Origin: Spirochaetaceae bacterium
Lineage (GTDB): Bacteria > Spirochaetota > Spirochaetia > DSM-2461
NCBI GenBank assembly: GCA_965224705.1
Contig: OZ245056.1
Span: 1,248,001-1,312,000 of the forward strand
Direction: 5' to 3'
DNA: 64,000 nt
Shown here in pieces: positions 1 through 38,443 of this stretch. Every line of letters begins with the position of its first letter. The stretch's first letter is position 1. The notes beneath the pieces are model-generated. The model worked only from the letters and a program-made list of their open reading frames with translations. It did not search any database and was not told where the DNA came from. The translations under genes and the position numbers were made by a program.

Positions 1-3000
1 GTGCAGAACGGCGGAAAATTGAAAACAAACTGACTCCTTTTTATAATGAGCATCTGATTATCTACACAGCATCTGATAACAGCCGCCAAATATGGCAGCT
101 CAAGATTCAGGAAAACAATAAACCAAAACAAATACATGAAGTACCCTGGTATCTGCATCAAGACACAGAAATATTATTCCAGCGACTGCGGAATATTTTT
201 TTTACCCTGGAGGAAGAAGAGGATATCACCATCGTTGATGTACAAAGAAGAATCAGCGAAAATTTTGCAAAAAACACCGATAAAGTGACAAAAAAGTTTT
301 ACGATGAATTCAAAATTCAGCACAGAGATTTTCTGAAATTTATCAATGGTATAGACGACAATCTCCCCAATCCAAACAACTCAAAAAAGCAGTGGTATGC
401 TTCTCTCATGCTGAACCGATTGATGTTCTGCTACTTTATTCAGAAAAAGGGATTCCTGGATCAGGATATAAACTATCTGAAAAACAAGCTGAACGAATGC
501 AGGGATTTATCAGGTTCAGATAACTTCTACGGCTTCTACAGAAGTTTTTTGCTCAGACTTTTTCATGACGGCCTGGGAAAACCAAAAGAAAAGCGTGAAG
601 ATGTACCATCAATTGATATGGGAAAAGTTCCCTATTTGAACGGAGGACTGTTTGACATACACGAACTGGAAAAGCAGTTCAAAAAGATTAACATTCCAGA
701 TGAGGCTTTTTCTAGAATTTTTTATTTTTTTGACCAGTGGAACTGGCATTTGGATACCAGAATTGAAGCCAGTGGAAAAGATATTAACCCCGATGTTCTG
801 GGGCATATTTTTGAAAAATACATCAATGCCCGTGCCGATATGGGCGCCTACTACACCAAAGAGGATATTACAGGTTACATTGGCCGGAATACCATTATTC
901 CCTTTCTCTTTGAGGAAACCCAAAGGCATTACTCTAGACCTTTCAAAAAAGGAGGGGAATTCACTGGTTTTGTCCAGGAAAGCGGCGATGCCTATATCTT
1001 TGATGCCGTAAAGAAAGCTGTCCCAAAGAGCGATATTTTCAGCGATCTACCGGAAGAAATAAAAGCCGGATTCAAGCCGGAAATGGAAAAACAGCTTGTA
1101 GCGGAATCAGAGAAACCCCATCTCTGGGAGCTGCGTAAGCCCTGGAATCGGTCAGCCCCTTCAAAAAAAGCACTGCCAACGGAAACCTGGCGGGAATTAA
1201 TTGCCCGCAGAAAACGTTGTCAGGAACTGCGGAAAAAAATCAACACCGGGCAAATTGAAAAAATCAACGATTTTATTACCTATAGCCTGGACATCTGTCA
1301 GTTTGCCCAGGACTACATTGCCAACACCGCCGATGCAAAATTTATCGGACATTTTTATCATGCTATCCAGAAAATAACTGTCCTTGACCCCACCTGCGGT
1401 TCGGGAGCTTTCCTTTTTGCCGCCTTGAATTTACTGGAACCCCTGTATGAAGAATGCATCACACGCATGGAGCAGTTTACCACAGAAGAAGAAGGTAAGC
1501 ATAAATTTTTTGAAGAAACACTAAGAGAGATTGATTCGGATAAGCACCCAAGCCTCAAATACTACATCTACAAAAGCATTATCCTTAACAACCTTTACGG
1601 TGTAGACATTATGAAAGAGGCCGCCGAAATTGCCAAGCTCCGTTTGTTTCTAAAGCTGGTAGCCACAGTAGACCCCAATCCTGCCAAAGAGAGTTATGGG
1701 CTGGAACCGCTGCCGGATATCGATTTTAACATAAAAGCAGGCAACACCCTGATTGGTTATTCTACCGAAGAAAAACTCAAAGAATCAATCGAAAAAAAAG
1801 ACGGCATGTTTGCCAAAAACAAGCTGGAAAAAATTGAAGAGGAATGCCAGCTAATAAGCCAGGCGTACCGCCGTTTTCAGGACTCCCAGCTAATCAGCGA
1901 TCAGGGAAGTAAAGACTTTGAAGAAGCCAAAACAAGCTTGAACAGAGCACTCTCCGAATTGAACCACAAACTCAATGGATATTTGTGTGCCGATTACGGT
2001 ATTCAGCAATGCGAAGAAATCGATGGAAAAGACGGCCAGTTTGAAGACCCGCAGAAAATGCGGGCCGTAACAAAAAAATATGACGATTGGCTCAAAAGCC
2101 ATCAGCCCTTTCATTGGTTTGCCGAGTTTTATCAAATTGTTGTCGCGAATGGCGGATTTGACGTGATTATTGGGAATCCGCCGTATGTGGAGTATAGTAA
2201 GGTTAAGAAGAAGTATAAAATTTCAAATTATGAAACTGAAAAATGTGGGAATTTATATGCAATGGTTTTTGAGCAATGTAGACTCTTATTATGTAAAAGT
2301 GGACACATTGGAATGATTGTTCAAAATTCAATAGCTTGTACTAAAAGGATGATTGGAGCGCAAAAACTTCTAGCAAATTACAATTTATATTATAGTCATT
2401 ATGATGATCGCCCAGCAAAATTATTTACTGGTATACATCATATGAAAGGGACAATCTTCTTAATTTCAAACAAAGGAAAAGCCAACAAGACATACTCAAC
2501 AAAATTTTATAGATGGCATGATGTATTAAGATATTCACTATTTCAATCAATAAAATATATAGAATATGATAAAAAAATATTACAAGAGGGGCATATTCCA
2601 AAATTATCAGAAAATATACATAGTACGATTACAAAGAAATACATCGGCTTGGGAAAAATCGATAAAAAAATAGAAAAACAAGGCCCTGTAATATATATAC
2701 ACAGAATAGCATCGTATTTCATTAAAGCATTACTAGAAATTCCTTATTTTTATAACGATGAGCAAGGGGTTAAGAAGTCCTCTGATTATAAGGTGTACAG
2801 CTTTAAAAGTAAAAATGAATCATATAAGTTTCTTGCATTATTTAACAGTACGTTTTTTTATATGTATTGGCATACATTTTATGATGGCTATCATTGTGGG
2901 AAGGAAAGTATAACGTTTTTTTTCTGTAGCAACTTACTGGGTAGCAATCTTAACGAGTTAGGAAAAAATATTGGAAAGGATCTAATTGCTAATTCAATCC

Positions 3001-3188
3001 GAAAAGAAACTTTATATAAATCAACCGGTAAAGTTATTTATGATGAATTTTATCCCAAAAAATCAAAACCAATCATCGACAAAATAGATACCGTTCTTGC
3101 TCAACACTATGGTTTCACCGAGGAAGAATTGGATTTCATCATCAACTACGATATAAAATACCGTATGGGAAAAGAGCTGAAGGATTAA
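1..3188 (+). CDS. Eco57I-like (type IIG/gamma-class) N6-adenine DNA methyltransferase, 5' truncated by the window edge
   Basis: The frame is open from position 3 (AERRKIENKL...) into the 285..3188 ORF. Motif I (LDPTCGSGAF) precedes motif IV (GNPPY), with a C-terminal TRD-like region. Confidence 0.85.
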   Translation, partial: AERRKIENKLTPFYNEHLIIYTASDNSRQIWQLKIQENNKPKQIHEVPWYLHQDTEILFQRLRNIFFTLEEEEDITIVDVQRRISENFAKNTDKVTKKFYDEFKIQHRDFLKFINGIDDNLPNPNNSKKQWYASLMLNRLMFCYFIQKKGFLDQDINYLKNKLNECRDLSGSDNFYGFYRSFLLRLFHDGLGKPKEKREDVPSIDMGKVPYLNGGLFDIHELEKQFKKINIPDEAFSRIFYFFDQWNWHLDTRIEASGKDINPDVLGHIFEKYINARADMGAYYTKEDITGYIGRNTIIPFLFEETQRHYSRPFKKGGEFTGFVQESGDAYIFDAVKKAVPKSDIFSDLPEEIKAGFKPEMEKQLVAESEKPHLWELRKPWNRSAPSKKALPTETWRELIARRKRCQELRKKINTGQIEKINDFITYSLDICQFAQDYIANTADAKFIGHFYHAIQKITVLDPTCGSGAFLFAALNLLEPLYEECITRMEQFTTEEEGKHKFFEETLREIDSDKHPSLKYYIYKSIILNNLYGVDIMKEAAEIAKLRLFLKLVATVDPNPAKESYGLEPLPDIDFNIKAGNTLIGYSTEEKLKESIEKKDGMFAKNKLEKIEEECQLISQAYRRFQDSQLISDQGSKDFEEAKTSLNRALSELNHKLNGYLCADYGIQQCEEIDGKDGQFEDPQKMRAVTKKYDDWLKSHQPFHWFAEFYQIVVANGGFDVIIGNPPYVEYSKVKKKYKISNYETEKCGNLYAMVFEQCRLLLCKSGHIGMIVQNSIACTKRMIGAQKLLANYNLYYSHYDDRPAKLFTGIHHMKGTIFLISNKGKANKTYSTKFYRWHDVLRYSLFQSIKYIEYDKKILQEGHIPKLSENIHSTITKKYIGLGKIDKKIEKQGPVIYIHRIASYFIKALLEIPYFYNDEQGVKKSSDYKVYSFKSKNESYKFLALFNSTFFYMYWHTFYDGYHCGKESITFFFCSNLLGSNLNELGKNIGKDLIANSIRKETLYKSTGKVIYDEFYPKKSKPIIDKIDTVLAQHYGFTEEELDFIINYDIKYRMGKELKD

Positions 3189-4346
3189 ATGAAACCAAAA
3201 TTAACAATCAATCCAAATGTTCTCAAATGGGCAAGAGAGGCTGTATCTCTATCACCGAAAGAGGTTGTATCCAAAATCAAAAGAGCCAGCTTTAACGAGG
3301 AAACACTAAACCGCCTTGAACGGGGTGAAGAGTATCCCGATTGGGTCCTGGCCGAAACTCTGGCGAAACTCTATGGCATTAATACTGCTGTTTTATACCT
3401 TCCTCATATTCCTCAAAACATACAGCCATTGAAGGACTTCAGAACCGTTTCCGAATCCTTTGGCCGGGATTCAGTTCTATTTATGAGAACCATTCAGGAA
3501 AAACAGGCATGGATGAGCAATTATAGAAAATCACAAGGATATGATGCCTATGATTTTGTTGGGAGCTTGTCGCTGATCTCTGAACTGCAGGAATTTCAGC
3601 AATTTTTTGAACGTTCCTTGAAAATAAACTTTTCTGCCTATTGGGGGAAAAAAAATCCGAGCGATCCATTAAAAGACTTCATCGCCCTAACGCAGGACTA
3701 TGGAATCAGTGTATCCCACACCTATGGAACACACGGAAAAGCCGTGCTTGATGTTGAAGAAATTCGAGGCTTTGCCATCGCCGATGCCTACGCCCCTTTT
3801 ATTTTTATCAATAGCCAGGATTCAAAAAAAGCACAAGTATTTACCTTTGTTCATGAGATCATTCATCTCTTGATAGGAGAATCCGGCGTTTCAGACGCAT
3901 CCTCAAAAAACCGGCATAGAATTGAGCGGTTCTGCAATCACATAACAGCCGATTTGTTAATGCCCCGAAGCGGCATATTGGATAGCATCTGTGATTTTTC
4001 AAGCGAGGATGGGATCCGCTGTGCTGCTGATTATTTTCAGGTGAGTATGAAGGCACTGCTCATACGGCTCAAGACCCTTGGGATTCTTTTTAATGATGAT
4101 TTCAATGCTTATTACGGTAAGGCCGGACAATTCGATGCGCCTATTACTGAAAAAGACAAAAAGAAAGATTCCGGGGGGCCCTCATGGTTCCTCATGCGGT
4201 CATTACTCAATGGAAAACCTTTTTCTCAAGCGGTTATTACAGCCTACAGCAACAACGATATTTCAACCAGAGAAATGAGTACACTTCTCCAGATAAAACA
4301 CGAGAAATTATCTAACTACATTGAAAAGGGGGCAATCTATGGATGA
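3189..4346 (+). CDS. XRE-HTH + ImmA/IrrE-family metallopeptidase
   Basis: N-terminal HTH (LKWARE...LNRLERGE) and an HExxH motif (FTFVHEIIH) followed by IERFCN. ATG directly abuts the upstream stop. Confidence 0.85.
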   Translation: MKPKLTINPNVLKWAREAVSLSPKEVVSKIKRASFNEETLNRLERGEEYPDWVLAETLAKLYGINTAVLYLPHIPQNIQPLKDFRTVSESFGRDSVLFMRTIQEKQAWMSNYRKSQGYDAYDFVGSLSLISELQEFQQFFERSLKINFSAYWGKKNPSDPLKDFIALTQDYGISVSHTYGTHGKAVLDVEEIRGFAIADAYAPFIFINSQDSKKAQVFTFVHEIIHLLIGESGVSDASSKNRHRIERFCNHITADLLMPRSGILDSICDFSSEDGIRCAADYFQVSMKALLIRLKTLGILFNDDFNAYYGKAGQFDAPITEKDKKKDSGGPSWFLMRSLLNGKPFSQAVITAYSNNDISTREMSTLLQIKHEKLSNYIEKGAIYG

Positions 4347-4791
4347 TTATTGCATGGATTCCAACTTTTTCATTGAATTTAGTAAAAGCCATCCTGTTGA
4401 CCTGTATCAAGCATTTTGGGATTTACTCAACGAGCTAATAGAAGAAAAAACCATTTTTATCCCGAAAGTCGTGTGGGATGAGATTTCAAGTAATTCCACA
4501 GTATCATCTTCTATAAATAAAACGGGAATAATACGAGACTTTACGCAGGAAACCGACACACAGATGCAAAAAATCATGCAAGACCCCACCATGCAAAATA
4601 TGATTGACAATAAAAGTCTCAAAAATGGAGCTGATCCTTTTGTTATTGCTTATGCTTTGGCCTATAATGCCACTCTGGTTGCAAACGATGGCGGCGTAAA
4701 GGAATACTGCCGCAAAAAAGAGATTAAATGCATTGGGCGTAATGATTTTTTAAGAGAGCTAAAAGTATCATTTAGCGTACAGCGGGGCTGA
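4339..4791 (+). CDS. PIN-domain protein (DUF4411-like)
   Basis: YCMDSNFFI...VWDEI...ADPFVIAYA...LVAND PIN acidic motifs; overlaps the ImmA gene by 8 bp, the usual DUF4411 context. Confidence 0.75.
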   Translation: MDDYCMDSNFFIEFSKSHPVDLYQAFWDLLNELIEEKTIFIPKVVWDEISSNSTVSSSINKTGIIRDFTQETDTQMQKIMQDPTMQNMIDNKSLKNGADPFVIAYALAYNATLVANDGGVKEYCRKKEIKCIGRNDFLRELKVSFSVQRG

Positions 4792-4795
4792 GCCT

Positions 4796-5269
4796 ATGTT
4801 CTACAGGGGAAACAGGGATTTATTAGCTCTGAATAAAACAGGTTTTCTTTGTTCCAGGAAAATCCCGGCCAATGCTGTTCTAAAGAGTTATGAATGGGCA
4901 AAGAATGCCCGAAAAGAAGGCACTTGTGTTATCTGCGGGAATCATTCGCAACTTGAAAAAGATGTCTTTCAAATCTTGTTAAAGGGAAAACAACCAATCG
5001 TTCTCTGTTTAGCAAGAACGCTTTACAGCCGTTGGGATGCAGTGATTGAAGAGTCTATTCAGAGCGGGCGGCTTCTGGTCATTTCACCGTTTGATTCATC
5101 CATAAAACGGATAAGCCGAATCACAGCAGAAAAAAGAAATCGTTTGATTATGGAACTCTCTGACGATATTGTGGTGGGTTATGTTGGCGAAGGCGGGCTG
5201 TTAGAAAAACTATTGCGCGAGAAGGTCTATACAACATTGATTGAGCACACCCCGCCAGTGCCCACTTAA
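4796..5269 (+). CDS. Short DprA/SMF-like (SLOG fold) protein
   Basis: GNRDLLAL..GFLCSRK...GNHSQLEKD...RLLVISPF...AEKRNRLIMELSD resembles the DprA Rossmann core. Confidence 0.65.
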   Translation: MFYRGNRDLLALNKTGFLCSRKIPANAVLKSYEWAKNARKEGTCVICGNHSQLEKDVFQILLKGKQPIVLCLARTLYSRWDAVIEESIQSGRLLVISPFDSSIKRISRITAEKRNRLIMELSDDIVVGYVGEGGLLEKLLREKVYTTLIEHTPPVPT

Positions 5270-5498
5270 CAGCCATATCTCCACGATCAATAGCGAACGA
5301 ACCGAAGGCAATACGAAAGCTTTTGACCGGATATCCCAGCTGTGAATCTGAAAAATTTTTTGCGTAAAGATGCCCCAATTTCGTCCACAATATTTGCTTG
5401 CTGAGGACAATCTATCAATTATTTTCATACAAACGGCCGCCGAATGGCAGTCCAAAATCTTCCAGTTTCCTTTGATTTGTGTTTTCCTTGCGATACAT
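5270..5498 (-). pseudogene. IS5-family transposase N-terminal remnant
   Basis: Manual translation after a GGAGG RBS gives MYRKENTNQRKLEDFGLPFGGRLYENN**IVLSKQILWTKLGHLYAKNFSD..GYPVKSFRIAFG. This matches the LPFGGxL..NRW start of IS5-type transposases and contains two in-frame stops. Confidence 0.65.
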
Positions 5499-5695
5499 GA
5501 TTCCTCCCTGGTGCAAGGGGGTTTGGAGATTTCGAGTTTTTTCCTTGCACTTGAGGACATTTTAGATACATTCAAGTCTTTTGAGAATATCTCCTTTGTT
5601 CAAACGCACAACATAATCTGTTTCGCGCATTATTTTCTCTCCCATTATTCTAATGATCGGCATATCCAATGTAGATTTTTAGCCTTGAAGGGATA

Positions 5696-28127: not shown

Positions 28128-31100
28128 ATGACGGTTCAAAGAATTCTCGCTGCTCTTCTGGGAATATCCATTCTAATCGGATGTCCATCGCCAAATACTG
28201 AGCTAACCGATGCAGAGTTGGTGGCGGTAGCCAAGGCGGATCTGGCTATCACGTATGGGGGAAGTGATAACGCAGCCAGCGTAACTCAGGATGTAACCCT
28301 CCCAACCACCGTGGCCACCGCTTCCGGCGTAAGCATTTCATGGAGCAGTGACAACACGGCCATTGATGCCGCAACGGGAAAGGTTACACGCCCAAGCGCC
28401 TCTTCCGGTGATGCCTCAGTCACCCTGACAGCAACCATTGAAAAAGGAAGTGAATCTGACACAAAGACCTTCTCCCTTAAGGTTGAGGCAGCACCCACAG
28501 ACGCAGAGTTGGTGGCAACAGCCAAAGATGATCTGGCTGTCATTTATGGGGGAAGTGATGACGCGGCCAGCGTAACTCAGGACATAACCCTCCCAACCAC
28601 CGTGGCCTCCGCTCCCGGCGTAAGCATTTCATGGAGCAGTGACAACACGGCCATTGATGCCGCAACAGGAGTGGTTACCCGCCCGGCCAGCGGCGCTGGC
28701 AATGTTATAGTGGGACTGACAGCAGCCATTAAGAAAGGAAGCGAATCTGACTCAAAGACCTTCCCTCTCATGGTCCTAAAAGAAGGGGGAGTTCCTCCCA
28801 CAGATACAGAGTTGGTGGTGACAGCCAAGACTGATCTGGCTATCACGTATGGGGGAAGTGATAACGCAGCTAGCGTAACTCAAGATATGACCTTGCCAAC
28901 CACTGTGGCCACCGCTCCCGGTGTAAGCATTTCATGGAGCAGTAACAACCCGGCCATTGATGCCGGAACGGGAGCGGTTACCCGCCCAAGCGCCTCTTCC
29001 AATGATGCCTCGGTGACTTTGACAGCGACTATCACTAAGGGGTCCGCCACCGACACAAAGACCTTCGACCTCACCGTGCTCAAAGTAGTACCAACAGACA
29101 TCGGAACACTTGGCAGCTTCACCATTGATGTGGGTGACGCAACAGTAGAGGCAAACACTGCTGGTTCTCACAGCGTAACGGTAAATGGAAATCTCAATCC
29201 GGGAAGCGACTATACCCTGACCATAACGAGTCCTCTTACCATCACGAATACAGGAGCTATCACCATACCTAATACCTACACTTCAACAGGTACACATCAG
29301 ATAACCGTAACAGCTACCGGCCGCGGCAACTACACCGGCACGAAAACGGCAACCTTCACTTTTACGGTGGTTCTTTCAGATGCCGATGCGGTGGCTGCAG
29401 CCAAAACAGCCCTGGATATCACGGATATTACCTTTGCCTCAGGGGAAGACAAAGATAGTGTAAAGCAGGACCTAACCCTGCCGACCTCTGGCGAGGAAGC
29501 TACAACTATTGCATGGAGCAGTGACAACACGGCTATTGATGCCGCAACAGGAACGGTTACCCGCCCAAGTGCCTCTTCCAGCAGTGATGCTTCAGTGACC
29601 CTGACAGCAACTATCACCAAGGGAGCCGCCACCGCCACAAAGACCTTCGTCCTCTCCGTGATCAAAGAAGTACCAATAGACATCAGTACACTCGGCAGCT
29701 TCACCATTTCCGTTGCTAACACAACAGCAGAGACAAACACCGAGGGCTCTCACAGCGCGGCGGTAAATGGCGGTCTCACTGCGGGAAACGACTACACTCT
29801 TTCCATAACGGATCCCCTTACCATAACGAATGCAGGAGCTATCACCATACCTAATACCTACACTTCAACAGGTACACATCAGATAACCGTAACAGCTACC
29901 GGCCGCGGCAACTACACCGGCACGAAAACGGCAACCTTCACTTTTACGGTGGTTCTTTCAGATGCCGATGCGGTGGCCACAGCCAAAACAGCCCTGGATA
30001 TCACGGATATTACCTTTGCCTCAGGGGAAGACAAAGATAGTGTAAAGCAGGACCTAACCCTGCCGACCTCTGGCGATGAAGGGACAGCCATTTCATGGAG
30101 CAGTGACAACACGGCCATTGATGCCGCAACGGGAGCGGTTACCCGCCCAGACGCCTCTTCCAGTGATGCCTCGGTGACCCTGACAGCGACTATCACCAAG
30201 GGAGTTGCCACTGCCACAAAGACCTTCGTCCTCACCGTGCTCAAGGAGGAACCAATAGACATTGGAACACTCAGCAGCTTCAGCATTGATGTGGATGACA
30301 CAACAGCAAAGACAAACACCGAGAGTTCTCACAGCGTGACGGTAAATGGCAGTCTCTCTGAGGGAACCGACTACGATCTTGACATAACGGATCCTCTTAC
30401 TATCACGAATGCTGGGGTTATCACCATACCTAATACCTACACTTCAACAGGTACACTTCAGATAACCGTAACGGCTACCGGCAAAGGCAACTACTCCGGC
30501 ACGAAAGCGGCAACCTTCACCCTGACGGTGGGTTATTCAGATGCAGAGTTGGTGGCGCAAGCCAAAACAGATTTGGCTATCACTTATGCAGTAAATGATA
30601 GTGCAAGTGCCGTAACTCAGGACCTAACCTTGCCAACCACTGGCACTGGAGGGACAACTATTGCATGGAGCAGCAACAACACGGCTGTTATTACCCATGC
30701 AGGAGCGGTTACCCGCCCAAGTGCCTCTTCTAGTGATGCCTTCGTTACCCTGACAGCAACCATTACAAGTGGAAACGTATCTGACACAAAGACCTTCACT
30801 CTCACCGTGAGCAAGGAGGAACCAATAGACATCGGAACACTCGGCAGCTTCACCATTACCGTTGCCAATAAAACGGTAGAGACAAATTCTGCTTCTACGG
30901 ACACTCACTCCGTAACGATAGGAGGCGGTCTCGCTACGGTAACCGACTACACTCTTGGCATAACGTCTCCTCTTGTCATCACGGATGCAGGTGCTATTAG
31001 CATACTCCCAAATTCCTACACCTCAGTAGGTACACATACGATAACCGTAACAGCTACCGGCCGCGGCAACTACACCGGCACGAAAACGGCAACCTCACCC

Positions 31101-32572
31101 TGACGGTAGTTCTTTCAGATGCCGATGCGGTGGCAGCAGCCAAAACAGCCCTGACTACCGCGGATATTACCTTTACCACAGGTGAAGATGCAAGTAAAGT
31201 AATTCAGGACATAACCTTGTCGGCCGCTGGCACTGACGGTACATCTATTACATGGGCCAGTAACAACGCGGCTATTGCCGTAGCAGGAACGGTTGGAACG
31301 GTTACCCGCCCAGACGCCTCTTCCGGTGATGCCACAGTGACCCTGACAGCGACTATCACCAAGGGATCCGCCACCGACACAAAGGCCTTCGTCCTCACCG
31401 TGCTCAAGGAGGAACCAATAGACATCGGAACACTCGGCAGCTTCACCATTTCCGTTGCTAACAAAACAGCAGAGACAAGCACCGAGGGCTCTCACAGCGT
31501 GACGGTAAATGGCGGTCTCAGTTCGGGAACCGACTACACCCTTTCCATAACGGATCCCCTTACTATCACGAATGCAGGGGTTATCACCATACCTAATACC
31601 TACACTTCAACAGGTACACATCAGATAACCGTAACGGCTACCGGCAAAGGCAACTACCTCGGCACAAAAACGGCAATCTTCACCCTTACGGTAGTTCTTT
31701 CAGATGCCGATGCGGTGGCTGCAGCCAAAGCAGCTCTGGATATAACCTACGGGGGAAGTGATAACGCAGGAAGCGTAACTCAGGACCTAACCTTGCCGAC
31801 CTCTGGCGATGAAGGGACAGCTATTTCATGGAGCAGCGACAACACGGCCATTGTTGCCGCAACGGGAGCGGTTTCCCGTCCAAGCGCCTCTTCCAGTGAC
31901 GCCGTGGTGACCCTGACAGCGACTATCACCAAGGGAACCGCCACCGACACAAAGACCTTCGTCCTCACCGTTGTTAAGCTGAAAACAGAAGCCGATATGT
32001 TCAGCTACGTCGATGCCGCAGACGGGGCGGTAACCCTTAATACTGAGCTATCTGCCCACGGAATAACGGTCACCGGAGGAAGTCCCAGTAATATAAAAAA
32101 AGTTTTCGGTGATGTATTTACCGACCCCAAAGACGAACAGGCTTCTTTGGAACTGGCTCTAATACACTTTCAGACTGCCCCCAGAAATGTGGGAGGACAT
32201 TGGGGGATTGATGATGCCAACAATGGTGATGGGATCTTCCTGAGCTATACATTTAGCACGCCGGTAAGTGTTGCCTCCGTTTTCTTATCTCCACGAAATG
32301 ATGAGGGTGGTAAATGGAGGGAAAGGGTGAACCCGGTGAGCATAGCACTATATGATACTAACGGCACAGAACTGGGGAGATTCAATCGAGCCCACACCGA
32401 TCCTAATAACGCGTGGGACTGGGTAACGCCCACCAGTAACTATAAAGGATATCAGACTACCCTGTTAACTCCGATAGAGGGGGTACACACATTGAAAGTG
32501 CTTATTGACGAAAATATTACTCCAAACAGTCCAACCCAGTTCAACTATTTCAATGTTGGGTTGGAATTTTAG
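28128..32572 (+). CDS. Large Ig-like repeat surface lipoprotein (~1480 aa), one frameshift at ~31095
   Basis: Lipobox ILIGC; 8 repeats of type LTLPT..ISWSS..VTRP..VTLTATITKG and 5 of type DIGTLGSF..TATGxGNY; unique C-terminal domain. AACCTCACC at 31091 versus AACCTTCACC in sister repeats joins the two ORFs. Confidence 0.85.
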
Positions 32573-32599
32573 CCTTGATGCAGGGGTTTTGGACATCAA

Positions 32600-32940
32600 T
32601 CTCTTGATCTGGGCTTTACCGAAAATAAAACATACTGGTTAAGCACCGAAAATGAAACAGTGTGAAGATGGCCCAGGTACTGGAAGTGCGTTTATATGGC
32701 TATTACCGTTGGATTCGCATGGGATGCCCTGACGAGAAGACGCGGGACAGGGAAATGATTGACGCTATAAGGCTTGTCCAGCAGGAAAACTCTTACAGAA
32801 CGGGTTCTCCCCGCGTGCATAAGGAACTAAAGAAAAAGGGGTATGGCATCGGTCACAACAAGGTGGCCCGCCTCATGAGTGAAAACGATTTAAGATGCCG
32901 CACTTAAAGAGCTTATATCAGAACGACCGTATCGGATCCG
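32600..32940 (+). pseudogene. IS3-family transposase fragment
   Basis: MAQVLEV..GYYRW...GSPRVHKELKKKGYGIGHNKVARLMSENDL is the OrfB N-terminal HTH; premature stop and no DDE domain. Confidence 0.8.
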
Positions 32941-33099
32941 GCAAATATGCTTAATGGAATATTGTAATTTTTCATTAAAGTTCAACTGTATTGCAAAAGA
33001 TAACACCAACCTGCTTTTTGTCAGCAGCATGGGGTTCGCCTCACTCGCCCCGTTAAAGCCTATGAGAAATAGGTGAATCGCATTCCAAAAGGTTAGCGA

Positions 33100-33226
33100 C
33101 AGGAACGGGACTGTAAAGTGATTATCGCCATCGCCGAAAAAATCCCGAACAACGTGCTCGAGGAAGATCCCAGGCTCCTCATGTGGTACGATCAGGCTGT
33201 AACACGTGTGGGGGGGGGGCGATTAA
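33100..33226 (+). pseudogene. C-terminal remnant of a DNA methylase, probably BREX type 3 PglXI-like
   Basis: Manual translation QERDCKVIIAIAEKIPNNVLEEDPRLLMWYDQAVTRVG resembles the C-terminus I recall for these methylases; not verified by search. Confidence 0.5.
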
Positions 33227-33260
33227 CTACAGATGGACACAGATTAAATGGAGAGAGAAT

Positions 33261-34667
33261 ATGTTAAAGAATTTGCGCATACAGAATTTTAAGGGGTGGA
33301 AGGATACAGCTTCTATTCGTATGGCCCCCATCTCGCTGTTTTTTGGGACCAACAGCTCAGGAAAATCCAGCATTGGACAGTTTCTGATGATGTTGAAACA
33401 AACCGTTGAATCTCCGGACCGTAAAGCTGTTTTCTATCCGGGCGGTAAGAACTCTGCTGTTCAGCTTGGTTCCTATCAGGAGATGGTCTTTCACCGTAAT
33501 CCGGAAAATAAAATCAGCTTTGAATATGATTGGTGTTTGTCTTCTTCCACTAAGTTTAAGGATCCCAACTCCGGCCAGTCATACACATATAATCAAGTTG
33601 CATTCAATGCTGAGGTTGGACCTGGAAATAAAGAGCAACACACCCGGGTAGTCGACAAATTCCAATACGAGCTAAAAGATTCAGATACTAAGAGCCTTTC
33701 TATCGGTATGGAAAGAAAAGCGGATTCAAAGGCAGAATATAAAGTTGATGCAACAGATTTTTCACTCAAACGCAATAAGGGTCGTGCCTGGTATCCCAGA
33801 GCACCTGTTCGTTTTTATGGATTTCCCGATGAAGTGGTTGCATACCACCAAAATGCTGATTTCGTTCAGAAATTGAATTTACAGCACGAAAAACTATTCC
33901 GGTCCATTTGCTATTTAGGTCCTCTACGTACAAAAGCGGAACGCTTGTATTCCTGGACCGGGATGGAACCCGAAAGTGTGGGCTATGCTGGTGAAAACAC
34001 CGTGGCGGCCATCTTAGCTGCTCGAACTCGAAGAATAAGTATGGGCTATAAAAAAGCAACAAAGCCCTTTGAACAAATCATTGCCATGAAACTAAAAGAG
34101 ATGGGCCTGATAGAGAAGTTTGAGGTTAACCCTATCTCTGAACAACGTCAGGAATATGAGGTTAAGGTTTGCACCAAAGGTTCAAGAGACTGGGTTGATT
34201 TACCCGATGTTGGTTTTGGTATTTCTCAGGTTTTGCCTGTATTGGTGCAGTGTTTCCATGCCCCGGCAAACTCCATTATTATTATGGAACAACCAGAGAT
34301 TCATCTTCATCCCAATGCGCAGTCGGCTTTGGCTGATGTAATGATTGATGTGATCAATTCCAGAGAAAATGGAAAAGACCGAAATATTCAGCTCATCATC
34401 GAGACTCATTCAGAACACTTCCTACGCAGGCTTCAGCGCAGGATCGCAGAGAATATCGTTTCTCAAGAAAAAATATCCGCCTATTTTGCCAATGTCAGCA
34501 GAACACCGGCCAAATTGGAACCATTGCAGATCGATATATTCGGAAGTATTCAAAACTGGCCGGAGAATTTTTTCGGTGATGAAATGGGTGATATTACCGG
34601 ACAGGCCAAAGCTGCCATGAAAAAACGGATGGAACAGAAATCTCAGAATACGAAGGTTTCTGAATGA
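33261..34667 (+). CDS. ABC-type/AAA ATPase with DUF3696-like C-terminus
   Basis: MLKNLRIQNFKG start, Walker A GTNSSGKS, DVGFGISQVLP, Walker B IIMEQPEIHLHP, H-loop ETHSEH and NWPENFFG tail. Confidence 0.88.
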   Translation: MLKNLRIQNFKGWKDTASIRMAPISLFFGTNSSGKSSIGQFLMMLKQTVESPDRKAVFYPGGKNSAVQLGSYQEMVFHRNPENKISFEYDWCLSSSTKFKDPNSGQSYTYNQVAFNAEVGPGNKEQHTRVVDKFQYELKDSDTKSLSIGMERKADSKAEYKVDATDFSLKRNKGRAWYPRAPVRFYGFPDEVVAYHQNADFVQKLNLQHEKLFRSICYLGPLRTKAERLYSWTGMEPESVGYAGENTVAAILAARTRRISMGYKKATKPFEQIIAMKLKEMGLIEKFEVNPISEQRQEYEVKVCTKGSRDWVDLPDVGFGISQVLPVLVQCFHAPANSIIIMEQPEIHLHPNAQSALADVMIDVINSRENGKDRNIQLIIETHSEHFLRRLQRRIAENIVSQEKISAYFANVSRTPAKLEPLQIDIFGSIQNWPENFFGDEMGDITGQAKAAMKKRMEQKSQNTKVSE

Positions 34668-35191
34668 GTTATCCGGATCTGTGTATAGTGGATACGAATG
34701 TTGCCAAAACGGCCAATCTTGCGACTCAGCCTGATCCAGAAACCAATTTTCCGGATGAGTGTATCAATGCTTGTGTTGCAGCCATTGAACATGTCATTCA
34801 AAAGAACGGTTTAGTCATTGATGCGGGAGATGAAATTTTTGATGAATATAGTCAGCAGCTTTCAATGGGCGGACAACCCGGCATAGGCGACAGTTTCATG
34901 AAGTGGGTGCATGATCATCGTTGGACTTTGCCGGAGTCTCAACGAGTTAAAATCACCAAGAATGTTGAATCATACGATGAGTTTCCTGAACATGAGGATT
35001 TAAATTCTTTCGATAAATCCGATCGCAAATTTGTGGCTGTTTCGAATGCACATTCAGGTAAACTAACTATTCTCCAGGCAACAGATAGTAAATGGTGGGG
35101 ATGGAAAGATGCGTTGATTCAATGCGGCATAGCGGTTCAATTTATATGCGAATGCTACATCCAGGCTAAATTTCAGGAGAAAATGGGATAA
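34664..35191 (+). CDS. PIN-like hypothetical protein
   Basis: CIVDTNV, FDEY, DKSDRKFVAV and ATDSKW give PIN-type acidic spacing; ATGA overlap with the ATPase. Confidence 0.65.
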   Translation: MSYPDLCIVDTNVAKTANLATQPDPETNFPDECINACVAAIEHVIQKNGLVIDAGDEIFDEYSQQLSMGGQPGIGDSFMKWVHDHRWTLPESQRVKITKNVESYDEFPEHEDLNSFDKSDRKFVAVSNAHSGKLTILQATDSKWWGWKDALIQCGIAVQFICECYIQAKFQEKMG

Positions 35192-35874
35192 TGAAAGACG
35201 ACTTCTTCAAATTCCCTTCAACACCTCATCTGGCCACACTTGAAGACGTGGAAGTCCGGGACAGCAAAGTTTTGTCCGAAGCAGAACGACTGGATTTCCT
35301 GAGACATGAAGTTGTTGTCGAAGAAAAAGTCGACGGTGCGAATCTGGGTTTATCCTTTAATTCAGAAGCTAATCTTTCCCTGCAAAACAGGGGAACTTAT
35401 TTACAAGTGTCGGGTGTGGGGCAATGGAAAAAAATGGAGCAATGGCTAAACCCTAAAATGGATGTGCTATTTGAAAGTATAACCGATCGTTTCATCCTTT
35501 TCGGCGAGTGGTGCTACGCACGGCATTCTGTTTATTACAACCGTTTACCTGACTTATTCCTGGGCTTTGACTTGTATGACAAGCAGGCTAAAAAATTTTT
35601 CTCAACTGAGAGAAGAGATAAATTATTCAAAGAAATGGGAATCTTTGGTGTCCCACAGATTGCTAAGGGCCAGTATAGCGTATCAGACATAGAAAACCTT
35701 TTAACTCAATCAAAAATTTCAGATGAACCTGCAGAAGGCTTATACCTCCGAATCGATCAAGAGAAATGGCTATTAAATAGAGCCAAGCTGGTTCGACCCT
35801 CTTTTATTCAGTCCTTAGAAGCACACTGGTCTTGTTCGGCAATCAAACCGAATCGCCTGGATTCAAATAGATGA
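35191..35874 (+). CDS. RNA ligase family nucleotidyltransferase (stand-alone adenylation domain)
   Basis: KFPSTPHL, motif I EEKVDGAN, III LFGEW, IIIa FLGFDLYD, IV EGLYLR and V RAKLV; TAATG overlap with the upstream gene. Confidence 0.85.
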   Translation: MKDDFFKFPSTPHLATLEDVEVRDSKVLSEAERLDFLRHEVVVEEKVDGANLGLSFNSEANLSLQNRGTYLQVSGVGQWKKMEQWLNPKMDVLFESITDRFILFGEWCYARHSVYYNRLPDLFLGFDLYDKQAKKFFSTERRDKLFKEMGIFGVPQIAKGQYSVSDIENLLTQSKISDEPAEGLYLRIDQEKWLLNRAKLVRPSFIQSLEAHWSCSAIKPNRLDSNR

Positions 35875-35974
35875 GAGATGCAAAGTGACTAAGTCTCAAA
35901 ACATCTGTGTTTATTCGTGTTCATCTGAAGAAAGCCGACAAGCAGGTGAATTTCACCGATGATGAGAGCAGGCA

Positions 35975-38443
35975 TTATGTTTCACGTGAAACAATATCAG
36001 GTACGACGGCTCCCTCTTCGCCTGGTTGCCGCACAATTCCGATCAATGAATCATCCTCATTAATATTCAGAATACGAACACCAAAAGCAGCCCGTCCCAT
36101 AACAGAGACCTGATCTACAGCAAATCGCAGGGCTTTCCCCTGTGCGGTTATACCGATACAACTGTCTATGTCTTTCACTGGAAGCAGGGCAACAACTTTT
36201 CCTGTCCGTTTATTCGGAGTATATGCCTTTTGCCCTCCGGTTCCTCTTCCATGAGAAAGAAATTCATCATTTCTCGTTCTTTTGCCATATCCCATTTCTG
36301 TTACAAGGAGCATCATTTCATGTTCTCGGACAGGGTAAACACCGATGATTTCATCCTCTTCTGCACATCTTATTCCCCTTACTCCTCTAGAAGCTCTTCC
36401 CATACAGCGTACAGACGATACGGGAAATCGCAACCCCTTCCCCTGGCGAGTTGCCAGAAAAAAGTCTTCCTCTCCTTTAACGAGTACGGCTTCAACAAGT
36501 CGGTCGCCCTCATCCAGATTGATGGCAATAATTCCCCTTGTACGTGCATTTCTAAAGTCGTATGTGGCCACTCTTTTAATCACACCCCTCCGAGTTGCCA
36601 TAATAAGCGTTGTCTCTTTATCAAAGCTCTCCAATGGAACCATTGCTGTAATATCTTCTTCTGGAGCAAATTCAAAAATTGTTTTCAGATGCTTTCCTCT
36701 ACTGTTTCGGGATCCTTCGGGTATCTCGAAAACCTTGATCCAGTACGCCTTGCCTTCAGAAGTGACAAAAAGAATATGTCTGTGTGTTGATGAAAGAAAA
36801 ACATGCTTGATGAAATCATCTTCCTTGAGATCACTGGTCCGGGCCCCTTTTCCGCCACGCCCCTGCTCCTTATATTCTGTTGCTGCAATTCTTTTGATAA
36901 AGCCCCGGTTCGATATAACAACAACAACATCCTCTTCTTCGATTAAATCTTCGAGATTCATCTGTAGAACTTCTTCGTGAACAATTTCCGTCTTTCTTGG
37001 TACTCCATACTTCTCTGCGATTTCCTCTGTTTCATTCTTTATTACTTTGAGGATTTTCTCCTCGCTGGCGAGGAGATCCTCCAGATAAGAAATAGTCTTC
37101 CGTACCTCTTCAAGTTCATCCAGGATTTTCTGTGCCTCAAGACTGGTCAGCTTTTGCAGGCGAAGATCAAGAATTGCCTGGGCCTGTTTCTCTGAAAACT
37201 GATACCTGCCCATAAGATTGGTGCGTGCCATAACGACGTTTTCAGACGTTTTTATTATTTCAACAATTGCATCGATGTTCTCAAGTGCTCTTTTTAAGCC
37301 GGATAGAACATGCTCCTTTTCCCTGGTTTTCGTTAAATCAAAAACACTTCGCCTTCGGACCACTTCCTGCCGATGCCTGACGAATTCGGAAAGCATCATT
37401 TTGAGATTAAGCAGCTCTGGTCTGCCATCAACAAGAGCAAGGTTATTGATACTGAAATTGACCTGGAGAGAAGTCTGAGAAAAAAGCTGGTTCATTACAA
37501 CTTTGGGACTTGCATTTCTTTTTAGCTCAATAACAATCCTTATTCCCTCTCGATCAGATTCGTCCCGTAAATCGGATATTCCATCAATTTTCCTGTCTCT
37601 GACAAGTGCCGCTATCCGCACCATCAAGGAAACCTTGTTTACCTGGTAAGGAAGCTCTGTAACGATGATGGCAAATCGATCATTCTTCATCTCCTCAAGT
37701 TCATAGCGAGCCCGAAGAACAACCTTGCCCCTGCCTGTATGGGCTGCCAGTTTGTATCCCATATCGCCATAGATCAAACCCTCTGTCGGAAAATCCGGGC
37801 CTTTTACATATCCAAGTAATTCGTTGATTGAAAGATCCGGGTTCTCAATCAAGGCCGCTATAGCTGATGAAATCTCCTTTACATTGTGGGGGGGCATATT
37901 GGTTGCCATTCCAACAGCAATGCCGCTGGCACCATTGATAAGTAGATTAGGAACGGCCGCCGGCAATACAAGTGGTTCCGTCATGGAATCATCATAGTTT
38001 GGACCGAAATCAACGGTTTCCTTCTTAATGTCTCGAAGCATGGGTTCTGCAATACTCGCCAGACGGGCTTCGGTGTATCGCATGGCCGCTGGCGGATCAC
38101 CATCGATGGATCCAAAATTTCCCTGCCCCTGAACCATTGGCACTCCAAGGGAGAAATCCTGTGCCAGTCGAACCAGTGCGTCGTAAATAGATTGATCCCC
38201 GTGAGGATGAAATTTGCCCAATACATCGCCGACAATGCGTCCACATTTCTTGTACGGCCTATCATGACGCAGACCCATTTCACTCATGGAGTAAAGGATC
38301 CGCCGATGCACAGGTTTCAGCCCATCGCGGACATCGGGTAACGCCCGGCTGACAATGACAGACATCGCATAGTTCAAATATGACTCTTTTACTTCATCCT
38401 CAATAGCAATGGGTATAACCCGGCTTTGTCCCTGTTCATTCAT
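35975..38443 (-). CDS. gyrA: DNA gyrase subunit A
   Basis: [28 protein letters not shown] and GyrA-box QGRGGKG. Confidence 0.97.
35978..35993. promoter_or_regulatory. parS centromere-like site
   Basis: Perfect palindrome TGTTTCACGTGAAACA, ~6 kb from oriC. Confidence 0.9.

Follow-up and report, generated by a model that had tools for sequence, protein, structure and literature searches.

Introduction

Antiviral defence that works by cutting RNA, tRNA included, is usually read as suicidal, and RNA ligases are known as the answer of the phage to such cleavage, as in the case of T4 Rnl1 and PrrC. PrrC is a tRNA nuclease regulated by an ATP-binding cassette (ABC) ATPase, and its cuts are rejoined by the T4 enzymes Pnkp and Rnl1; in that case it is the phage that encodes the ligase and overcomes the defence with it. 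In the locus described here, in contrast, a predicted RNA ligase is encoded inside the defence operon itself, and phage-borne copies of it exist as well. The locus lies in a 64,000-nucleotide stretch of the genome of a Spirochaetaceae bacterium (GenBank assembly GCA_965224705.1, contig OZ245056.1, positions 1,248,001 to 1,312,000 of the forward strand; the whole stretch is called the window below), in which a cassette at positions 33261-35874 carries genes for an ABC ATPase, for a PIN-domain protein and for a protein of the RNA ligase family. This cassette is a three-gene variant of the known system HEC-03, and the ligase is its new part.

HEC-03 (Hma-embedded candidate 03; Payne et al., bioRxiv 10.1101/2024.01.29.577857) is presented as an ABC ATPase and a PIN protein embedded in Hma systems. 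According to the same source, one representative lowered phage plaquing in E. coli, both genes being required, and was toxic when induced by isopropyl β-D-1-thiogalactopyranoside (IPTG); the authors liken the PIN protein to VapC ribonucleases. The letters of the two components are reversed between sources, the ATPase being HEC-03A and the PIN protein HEC-03B in the preprint and the opposite way in PADLOC. The window shares with HEC-03 an operon for a DUF3696-tailed ABC ATPase and a VapC-like PIN protein, each of which matches its PADLOC profile; the published system, however, has two genes, whereas here a coupled RNA ligase gene is the third. The word 'ligase' is absent from the main text of the preprint (bioRxiv 10.1101/2024.01.29.577857), and PADLOC-DB v2 lacks the three-gene form and has no profile for the ligase. 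Our literature search returned no link between HEC-03 or DUF3696 ATPases and an RNA ligase; the papers of Burroughs and Aravind (2016) and Krishnan et al. (2020) lay outside its scope and may describe such a linkage. The three-gene variant is judged to be new because it is absent from PADLOC-DB v2 and no literature link was found. Mentions of ligases in three of the papers returned turned out to be only reference-list entries on PrrC and T4.

Several other systems resemble the locus in part. Menshen (NsnABC) likewise combines a DUF3696-tailed ABC ATPase, NsnB, with a PIN-like partner protein, and in the AlphaFold 3 models presented for it two DUF3696 tails of NsnB clamp the PIN-like N-domain of NsnC. 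According to the Menshen paper, this N-domain has lost its acidic residues and NsnC carries a C-terminal BECR nuclease, whereas the PIN protein of the window is a single-domain protein of 175 aa that stands alone and keeps the acidic residues. No open reading frame (ORF) for NsnA (ParB/DUF262) adjoins our cassette, upstream of which there are only a fragment of the IS3 type (HTH_21) and frames without family, and Menshen has no ligase, the word being absent from that text. PARIS (AriA/AriB), Septu, Gabija and the OLD-type pairs also join an OLD-type ABC ATPase to a nuclease effector, and PARIS is reported to cut tRNA; their effector, however, is of the Toprim or HNH type and not a PIN protein, and they include no repair enzyme. 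With VapBC the locus shares a VapC-like PIN protein with acidic active-site residues, but instead of a small VapB antitoxin gene the gene directly upstream codes for a 468-aa ABC ATPase. The nearest printed parallel is the HARP-Rnl3 linkage (mBio 2025), in which a PIN-superfamily RNase is genetically linked to a PF09414-related RNA ligase. It concerns other families and another setting: the PIN protein is of family PF09745, its partner is a full-length Rnl3, the two genes are divergent in most cases, no ATPase accompanies them, and the context is RNA processing in extremophiles and not mobile defence loci. Ligases of the Rnl3 (Pab1020) type have about 380 aa, with an N-terminal domain and a C-terminal dimerisation domain on either side of the nucleotidyltransferase core, in contrast to the 227 aa of the window's ligase.

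Results

The ATPase-PIN pair

The first protein of the cassette matches PADLOC profile PDLC04148 ('HEC-03B') with an E-value of 9.7e-128, residues 1-461 lying on profile positions 1-457 of 458, and the second one matches PDLC04147 ('HEC-03A') at 1.3e-30; by these profile matches the ATPase-PIN pair is the known system HEC-03. The ATPase also matches the PADLOC profile of NsnB from Menshen (6e-59) and, over part of their length, those of AriA and GajA. In Pfam it belongs to AAA_15 (2.9e-28) and AAA_21 (9.7e-19) and ends with DUF3696 (PF12476; 4.3e-07 at residues 402-445).

The Walker A motif (GTNSSGKSS, K35) and the H-loop (ETHSEH) of the ATPase are kept. The Walker B motif of ABC ATPases usually has the form hhhhDEPE, with the catalytic glutamate at the position where a glutamine stands in the window's protein (IIIMEQPE, with IIIME at residues 339-343 followed by Q344). 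The form hhhhEQPExHLHP was found in 92 of 93 full-length relatives, including those from two-gene HEC-03 loci, and the remaining one has EEPE. The glutamine suggests that the protein may be an ATP-bound switch with slow hydrolysis rather than a fast hydrolase.

The middle protein matched no Pfam family. Its AlphaFold2 (AF2) model, built from 18 relatives, has a predicted local distance difference test (pLDDT) score of 93.4. A Foldseek search of the PDB with this model gave nothing significant (best E 0.28); an exhaustive structural aligner gave PIN/VapC proteins throughout the top of its list, namely VapC21 (5sv2; Z 9.2, root-mean-square deviation 3.2, 124 residues aligned), VapC11 (6a7v; Z 9.1) and VapC15 (4chg; Z 9.0), with FitB, Nob1 and HARP lower down. 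Residues D10 (in DTNV), E61, D117, D120 and D141 are invariant in 31 sequences, down to 29% identity. As modelled, the middle protein is thus a PIN fold with the usual PIN acidic set. Its C-terminal helix, K[FY]xxK[FM]G, occurs in the clades with a third gene and is absent from six two-gene loci, and this helix is a possible docking site.

Linkage of the ligase gene with the pair

The genome and metagenome scans were run with peptide patterns taken from the clade of the window, to which the figures that follow therefore apply; some of the metagenome contigs may share organisms with the genome set. The genome scan with the PIN protein yielded 80 loci at 58-79% identity, distributed over 15 named phyla with one archaeon among them. 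The ligase gene lies directly 3' of the PIN gene in 74 of the 79 assessable genome loci (tblastn), three of the 74 being cut by a contig end. Among the others (L and G numbers are our handles for loci and genomes), the ligase is reduced to remnants in L004 and L016 and absent from L021, L039 and L044, while L034 ends too early. The metagenome scan gave 80 loci, with the ligase in 72 of the 76 that could be assessed (62 full, 10 cut by a contig end); one further locus has a partial ligase, three have none and four were not assessable. The ligase is therefore present in about 95% of the assessable loci of the window's clade.

The linkage is also seen in far more distant relatives. On plasmids, 12 records contain a PIN relative at 34-37% identity, and in five of the six inspected the annotation reads ATPase, hypothetical protein and 'RNA ligase family protein' (Tistrella, Aeromonas salmonicida, A. 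veronii, Azotobacter and Rhodococcus). Three of these five plasmid ligases were checked and all belong to PF09414. The sixth plasmid, from Acinetobacter soli, has an HNH_2 endonuclease in the position of the ligase.

The stop codon of one gene overlaps the start codon of the next at 145 of the 147 PIN-ligase junctions, with four shared bases at 134 of them, and at 145 of the 154 ATPase-PIN junctions, with four shared bases at 131; the conservation of the former overlap argues that the gene arrangement is not due to chance. Pairwise identities of the PIN protein and of the ligase are correlated over 31 loci (r = 0.80) and within the close clade only (r = 0.64), values as high being reached in 0 of 2000 permutations in either case. 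In a reciprocal scan of 400 scored genomes with the ligase profile, all five strong matches (E < 1e-99) abut a PIN match; of four weaker matches in the class sample one is a fragment beside an HNH gene and the others belong to other PF09414 subfamilies. A single protein of 336 aa that looked like a PIN-ligase fusion proved to be a truncated PIN with read-through into the ligase; this isolated case was not taken as evidence.

The third protein

The third protein matches PF09414 with an E-value of 9.1e-30 (104.5 bits, cut-off 27) and two PHROG families of phage RNA ligases (8.4e-23 and 1.2e-10), and has no match among 5027 PADLOC profiles. Its motifs comprise K46 in EEKVDGAN, FGEW (104-107), EGLYLR (182-187) and RAKLVR (197-202). 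Across 31 sequences, motifs I (KxDGxN), III, IIIa, IV and V are invariant, and the invariant residues include K46, D48, G49, N51, F104-W107, F126-D127, E182-G183, R187 and K199, within the invariant segments EEKxDGAN, QNRG, FGEW, GFD, EG..R and R.K.V and an N-terminal P.T.H. A profile of the ligase family found only structures of the Rnl3 type in the PDB, and these weakly: 8uce (3.3e-05), 3qwu (1.4e-04), Pab1020 (2.7e-04) and 5d1o (0.03). The profile covers the nucleotidyltransferase domain alone, about residues 72-257 of the solved Rnl3 chains, and the score of the window's ligase against TIGR01209 (Rnl3), 17.2 bits, is far below the cut-off of 136.9. Because the matches are confined to this domain and TIGR01209 stays below its cut-off, the protein is, to judge from its sequence, a minimal ATP-dependent nucleotidyltransferase core of the RNA ligase family without the flanking domains of Rnl3.

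A preliminary description of this DNA, made from the letters only, had taken the locus for a defence pair of an ABC ATPase and a nuclease, with a PIN-like middle protein and a ligase-family third protein, and had expected the ligase gene to accompany the pair in other genomes. Both HEC-03 profile matches bear out the first of these claims; the AF2 model and the match to VapC21 agree with the second; the PF09414 match and the invariant lysine of motif I (KxDG) uphold the third; and the genome and metagenome counts given above confirm the fourth. The same description had not recognised the trio as a named system, and this was only half right: in the PADLOC check the pair, but not the trio, corresponded to a described system, HEC-03, which has been validated in E. 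coli, and the ligase-bearing trio is indeed missing from PADLOC-DB v2. For the ligase it had proposed either resealing of the RNA or adenylation of ends; both are putative roles, of which indirect evidence favours the first.

Two-gene and three-gene loci

The HEC-03 PIN profile is matched in 9 of 401 genomes from the class of Motiliproteus (G001, the genome of locus L038) and in 7 of 401 genomes from the window's own phylum. Of the loci concerned, seven have the ligase by tblastn (that of the window and L091, L092, L093, L095, L096 and L101); L094 ends too early, G415 and G502 have decayed copies, and six loci have two genes only (L088, L089, L090, L097, L098 and L099). The six two-gene loci score highest on the PADLOC PIN profile, with 115-206 bits compared with 104 for the window.

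A tree of the ATPases was made by a quick search with 49 of the 93 full-length rows, 44 close ligase-bearing rows being left out, and is unrooted. In it the six two-gene loci form one clade (support 99) separate from the window, which lies inside a clade of 36 rows (support 100) with nested losses of the ligase. Ligase-bearing lineages are also placed elsewhere, namely the Aeromonas/Azotobacter group, Tistrella, and Rhodococcus together with L096. As the tree is unrooted, one early gain of the ligase followed by losses is not separable from other histories.

Viral copies of the ligase

A scan of viral contigs with the ligase gave 16 loci, of which three carry the whole trio and one begins with the ligase plus an HNH gene. 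In seven others (L118-L124, on contigs of 80-508 kb) the ligase stands alone among small co-oriented genes of phage type, and neither an ATPase nor a PIN gene lies within 4 kb of it. In a carefully built tree of the ligases, the copy of L119, from a contig of 85 kb, nests within the system ligases beside an Aeromonas plasmid copy (75% identity; support 100/97), that of L118 is inside the system clade (support 97/94), and those of L120-L124 are outside it. Cultured phages have only distant relatives of the ligase, at most 27% identical. The stand-alone viral ligases of L118-L124 are candidate counter-defence genes.

Layout and surroundings of the cassette

The ORF listing shows three intact co-oriented genes on the + strand, head to tail (Table 1). 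At the ATPase-PIN junction (ATGA) four bases are common to ATG and TGA, the letters being CTGAATGAGT (within TCTGAATGAGT); at the PIN-ligase junction (TAATG) one base is common to TAA and ATG, the letters being GGATAATGAAA. The three genes are translationally coupled. The overlapping intact genes of the preliminary description were thus found again in the ORFs and junction letters, and of the flanks that it named the IS3 fragment and gyrA stand but the decayed methylase does not: a family search detected no methylase remnant in the three frames between the IS3 fragment and the cassette, and those frames match no family.

Table 1. Coordinates of features in the window and of ligase remnants and HNH_2 genes in related loci
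Sequence	Feature	Coordinates	Strand	Remarks
Window	ATPase gene	33261-34667	+	468 aa; ATG start behind GGAGAG ribosome-binding site
Window	PIN gene	34664-35191	+	175 aa; start overlaps ATPase stop (ATGA)
Window	Ligase gene	35191-35874	+	227 aa; start overlaps PIN stop (TAATG)
Window	IIIME of the ATPase Walker B	34275-34289
Window	K[FY]xxK[FM]G helix of PIN	35146-35188
Window	Two long repeat ORFs	28128-32572		991 and 480 aa
Window	IS3-type HTH_21 fragment	32662-32907		81 aa; 1.3e-13
Window	Frames without family	32893-33264		three frames
Window	Run of ten G	33210-33219		about 40 bases 5' of ATPase start codon
Window	gyrA	35975-38443		convergent; TIGR01063, 1141 bits
L083	HNH_2 gene	4526-5281		replaces ligase (Acinetobacter soli plasmid)
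L096	HNH_2 gene	2709-3468		follows ligase
L116	HNH_2 gene	744-1499		follows ligase
L110	HNH_2 gene	1079-1480		follows ligase; remnant
L011	HNH_2 gene	2501-3249		upstream; split form
L004	Ligase remnant	5537-5671

Downstream, the convergent gyrA is followed by gyrB and the divergent dnaA, at a distance of about 4.6 kb from the cassette. Upstream, the orphan fragment of the IS3 type lies between the cassette and a large repeat-protein gene, whose two long ORFs are made of almost identical repeats with much T, A, S and D. These ORFs may belong to a single gene for a surface protein, with a frame change near 31100 dividing it. The G+C content of the cassette (41-43%) is near that of gyrA/gyrB and below that of the upstream surface-protein gene. 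Rfam gave no match within 32400-36200, and promoter-like and terminator-like sites showed no excess over shuffled controls. A run of ten G precedes the ATPase gene, and variation in the length of this homopolymer could switch expression. In L004, the genes downstream of the cassette are PD-(D/E)XK and PglZ (BREX). Six short metatranscriptome contigs, from four runs of one study, match parts of all three genes at 95-100% identity, one of them bridging the ATPase-PIN junction; because DNA carry-over is possible, they demonstrate presence in RNA libraries and not transcription.

Discussion

The explanation that we prefer, while giving it somewhat less than an even chance, is that in this three-gene variant of HEC-03 the PIN RNase is, as predicted, held and set free by the ATPase, and the breaks that it makes are sealed again by the ligase. 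An ATPase oligomer would clamp the PIN protein through its DUF3696 tails; by analogy with the Menshen models, such a clamp is a likely way for the window's ATPase to hold its partner. A phage cue would alter the nucleotide state, upon which the PIN protein would be freed or activated and would cut RNA of the translation apparatus, leaving 5'-phosphate and 3'-OH ends that an ATP-dependent ligase could join directly. The ligase, made in step with the PIN protein, might reseal leaky cuts in uninfected cells and so limit self-damage, and might also restore the RNA once the infection has failed, so that the arrest would be reversed and the cell would recover.

Metal-dependent PIN nucleases leave 5'-phosphate and 3'-OH ends, and ATP-dependent ligases join ends of this kind without the help of a kinase or a phosphatase. 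The operon of the cassette contains no such end-healing enzyme. Since the expected ends would suit an ATP-dependent ligase without end healing, the ligase may mop up leaky cleavage and reverse the arrest. A repair role is also favoured by the stand-alone viral copies, because a phage gains from undoing RNA damage and not from adding to it; that phage RNA ligases counter host RNases is stated in a review. A wider version of this explanation, which we regard as a tentative possibility with the balance against it, would see here a widespread immune operon with its own antidote, in which a PIN RNase halts translation and the ligase re-stitches the RNA, so that the response is self-resetting, and from which phages have captured the ligase as a counter-defence.

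A number of observations weigh against resealing. At first glance, a repair enzyme would defeat the purpose of an abortive system. The substrate of the ligase (RNA or DNA) and the direction of its effect are predictions, its AF2 model failed (pLDDT 43), and the end chemistry of the window's PIN protein is assumed from other PIN nucleases. The ligase is dispensable, as the whole two-gene clade works without it, and a profile scan of three two-gene genomes of the class sample found no ligase elsewhere in the genome. It is lost or decayed in L021, L039, L044, L004 and L016, where the ATPase and PIN genes are intact. In the closest relative of the window (PIN 92% identical) the ligase, P0137, ends at residue 166, short of motifs IV and V, and in L004, the second of the two nearest relatives, it is reduced to residues 4-48; it is damaged, that is, in both nearest relatives and intact in the window. 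Because the two-gene clade defends without it, and because it has been lost repeatedly while the ATPase and the PIN protein remain intact, the ligase is not an obligate antidote. Finally, an HNH_2 (PF13391) nuclease recurs in these loci, in some of them in place of the ligase or behind it, which suggests that a second effector can occupy the third position.

The last observation is also one of the arguments for a contrary role, that of a co-effector which locks the damage in by circularising or mis-joining the fragments or by leaving 5'-adenylated ends, so that neither repair enzymes nor tRNAs of the phage could restore translation. All the catalytic motifs needed for this are kept, and the nearest solved relatives are Rnl3 enzymes, which are described as circularising RNA and one of which is reported to adenylate strongly and to ligate weakly (mBio 2025); both properties count against simple resealing. 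Close stand-alone copies on phage contigs would, however, be hard to explain if the enzyme were harmful to translation, and the two-gene HEC-03, as its preprint describes it, defends without a ligase, so that we consider damage-locking to be unlikely, if still worth serious attention. The tight translational coupling with the PIN gene and the restriction of the K[FY]xxK[FM]G helix to clades with a third gene would also fit a ligase that serves as an antitoxin-like regulator, binding or AMPylating the PIN protein or the ATPase as MNT proteins do with HEPN toxins, and the HARP-Rnl3 paper raised a toxin-antitoxin reading for its own PIN-ligase pair (mBio 2025). The repeated loss of the ligase with the PIN protein intact, which is not expected of an obligate antidote, makes such regulation improbable. 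Moreover, lysine adenylyltransferases of the ligase type are not known to AMPylate other proteins.

The PIN-like superfamily includes DNA nucleases, members of PF09414 are sometimes annotated as DNA ligases (the solved chains 8uce and 3qwu), and the HNH_2 partners are DNA nucleases by family name; the PIN-like protein could on these grounds nick or trim DNA in the style of flap nucleases, with the ligase sealing nicks of the host. Against this stand the best structural matches of the PIN model, which are VapC RNases and not PINs of the FEN or Mut7 type, the closest ligase relatives by profile, which are Rnl3 RNA ligases (Pab1020 and 5d1o), and the comparison of the PIN protein to VapC ribonucleases made in the HEC-03 preprint, and we find a role at the DNA level very improbable. 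That the ligase gene lies beside the pair merely by chance and is functionally unrelated to it might be argued from the two-gene form, which exists and, according to the same source, works; but this is scarcely credible in view of the 74 of 79 and 72 of 76 linked loci, the 145 of 147 junction overlaps, the co-divergence of the PIN protein and the ligase, the retention of the ligase at 34-37% PIN identity, and the strong ligase matches, all five of which adjoin a PIN gene. A small part of the probability has to be kept for an explanation other than those considered here.

In the clade of the window, the defence operon of the host itself carries the ligase as a fixed component, and tools that annotate HEC-03 with two genes at present overlook the third. 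If the ligase does reverse the cuts of the PIN protein, as in the resealing explanation preferred here, it would provide an RNA-targeting immune response with a built-in reset, and the question of whether RNA-cleaving immunity is abortive or reversible would become testable with three small genes. The locus would then also offer a natural nuclease-ligase pair with matching ends and, in its 227-aa third protein, a minimal RNA ligase.

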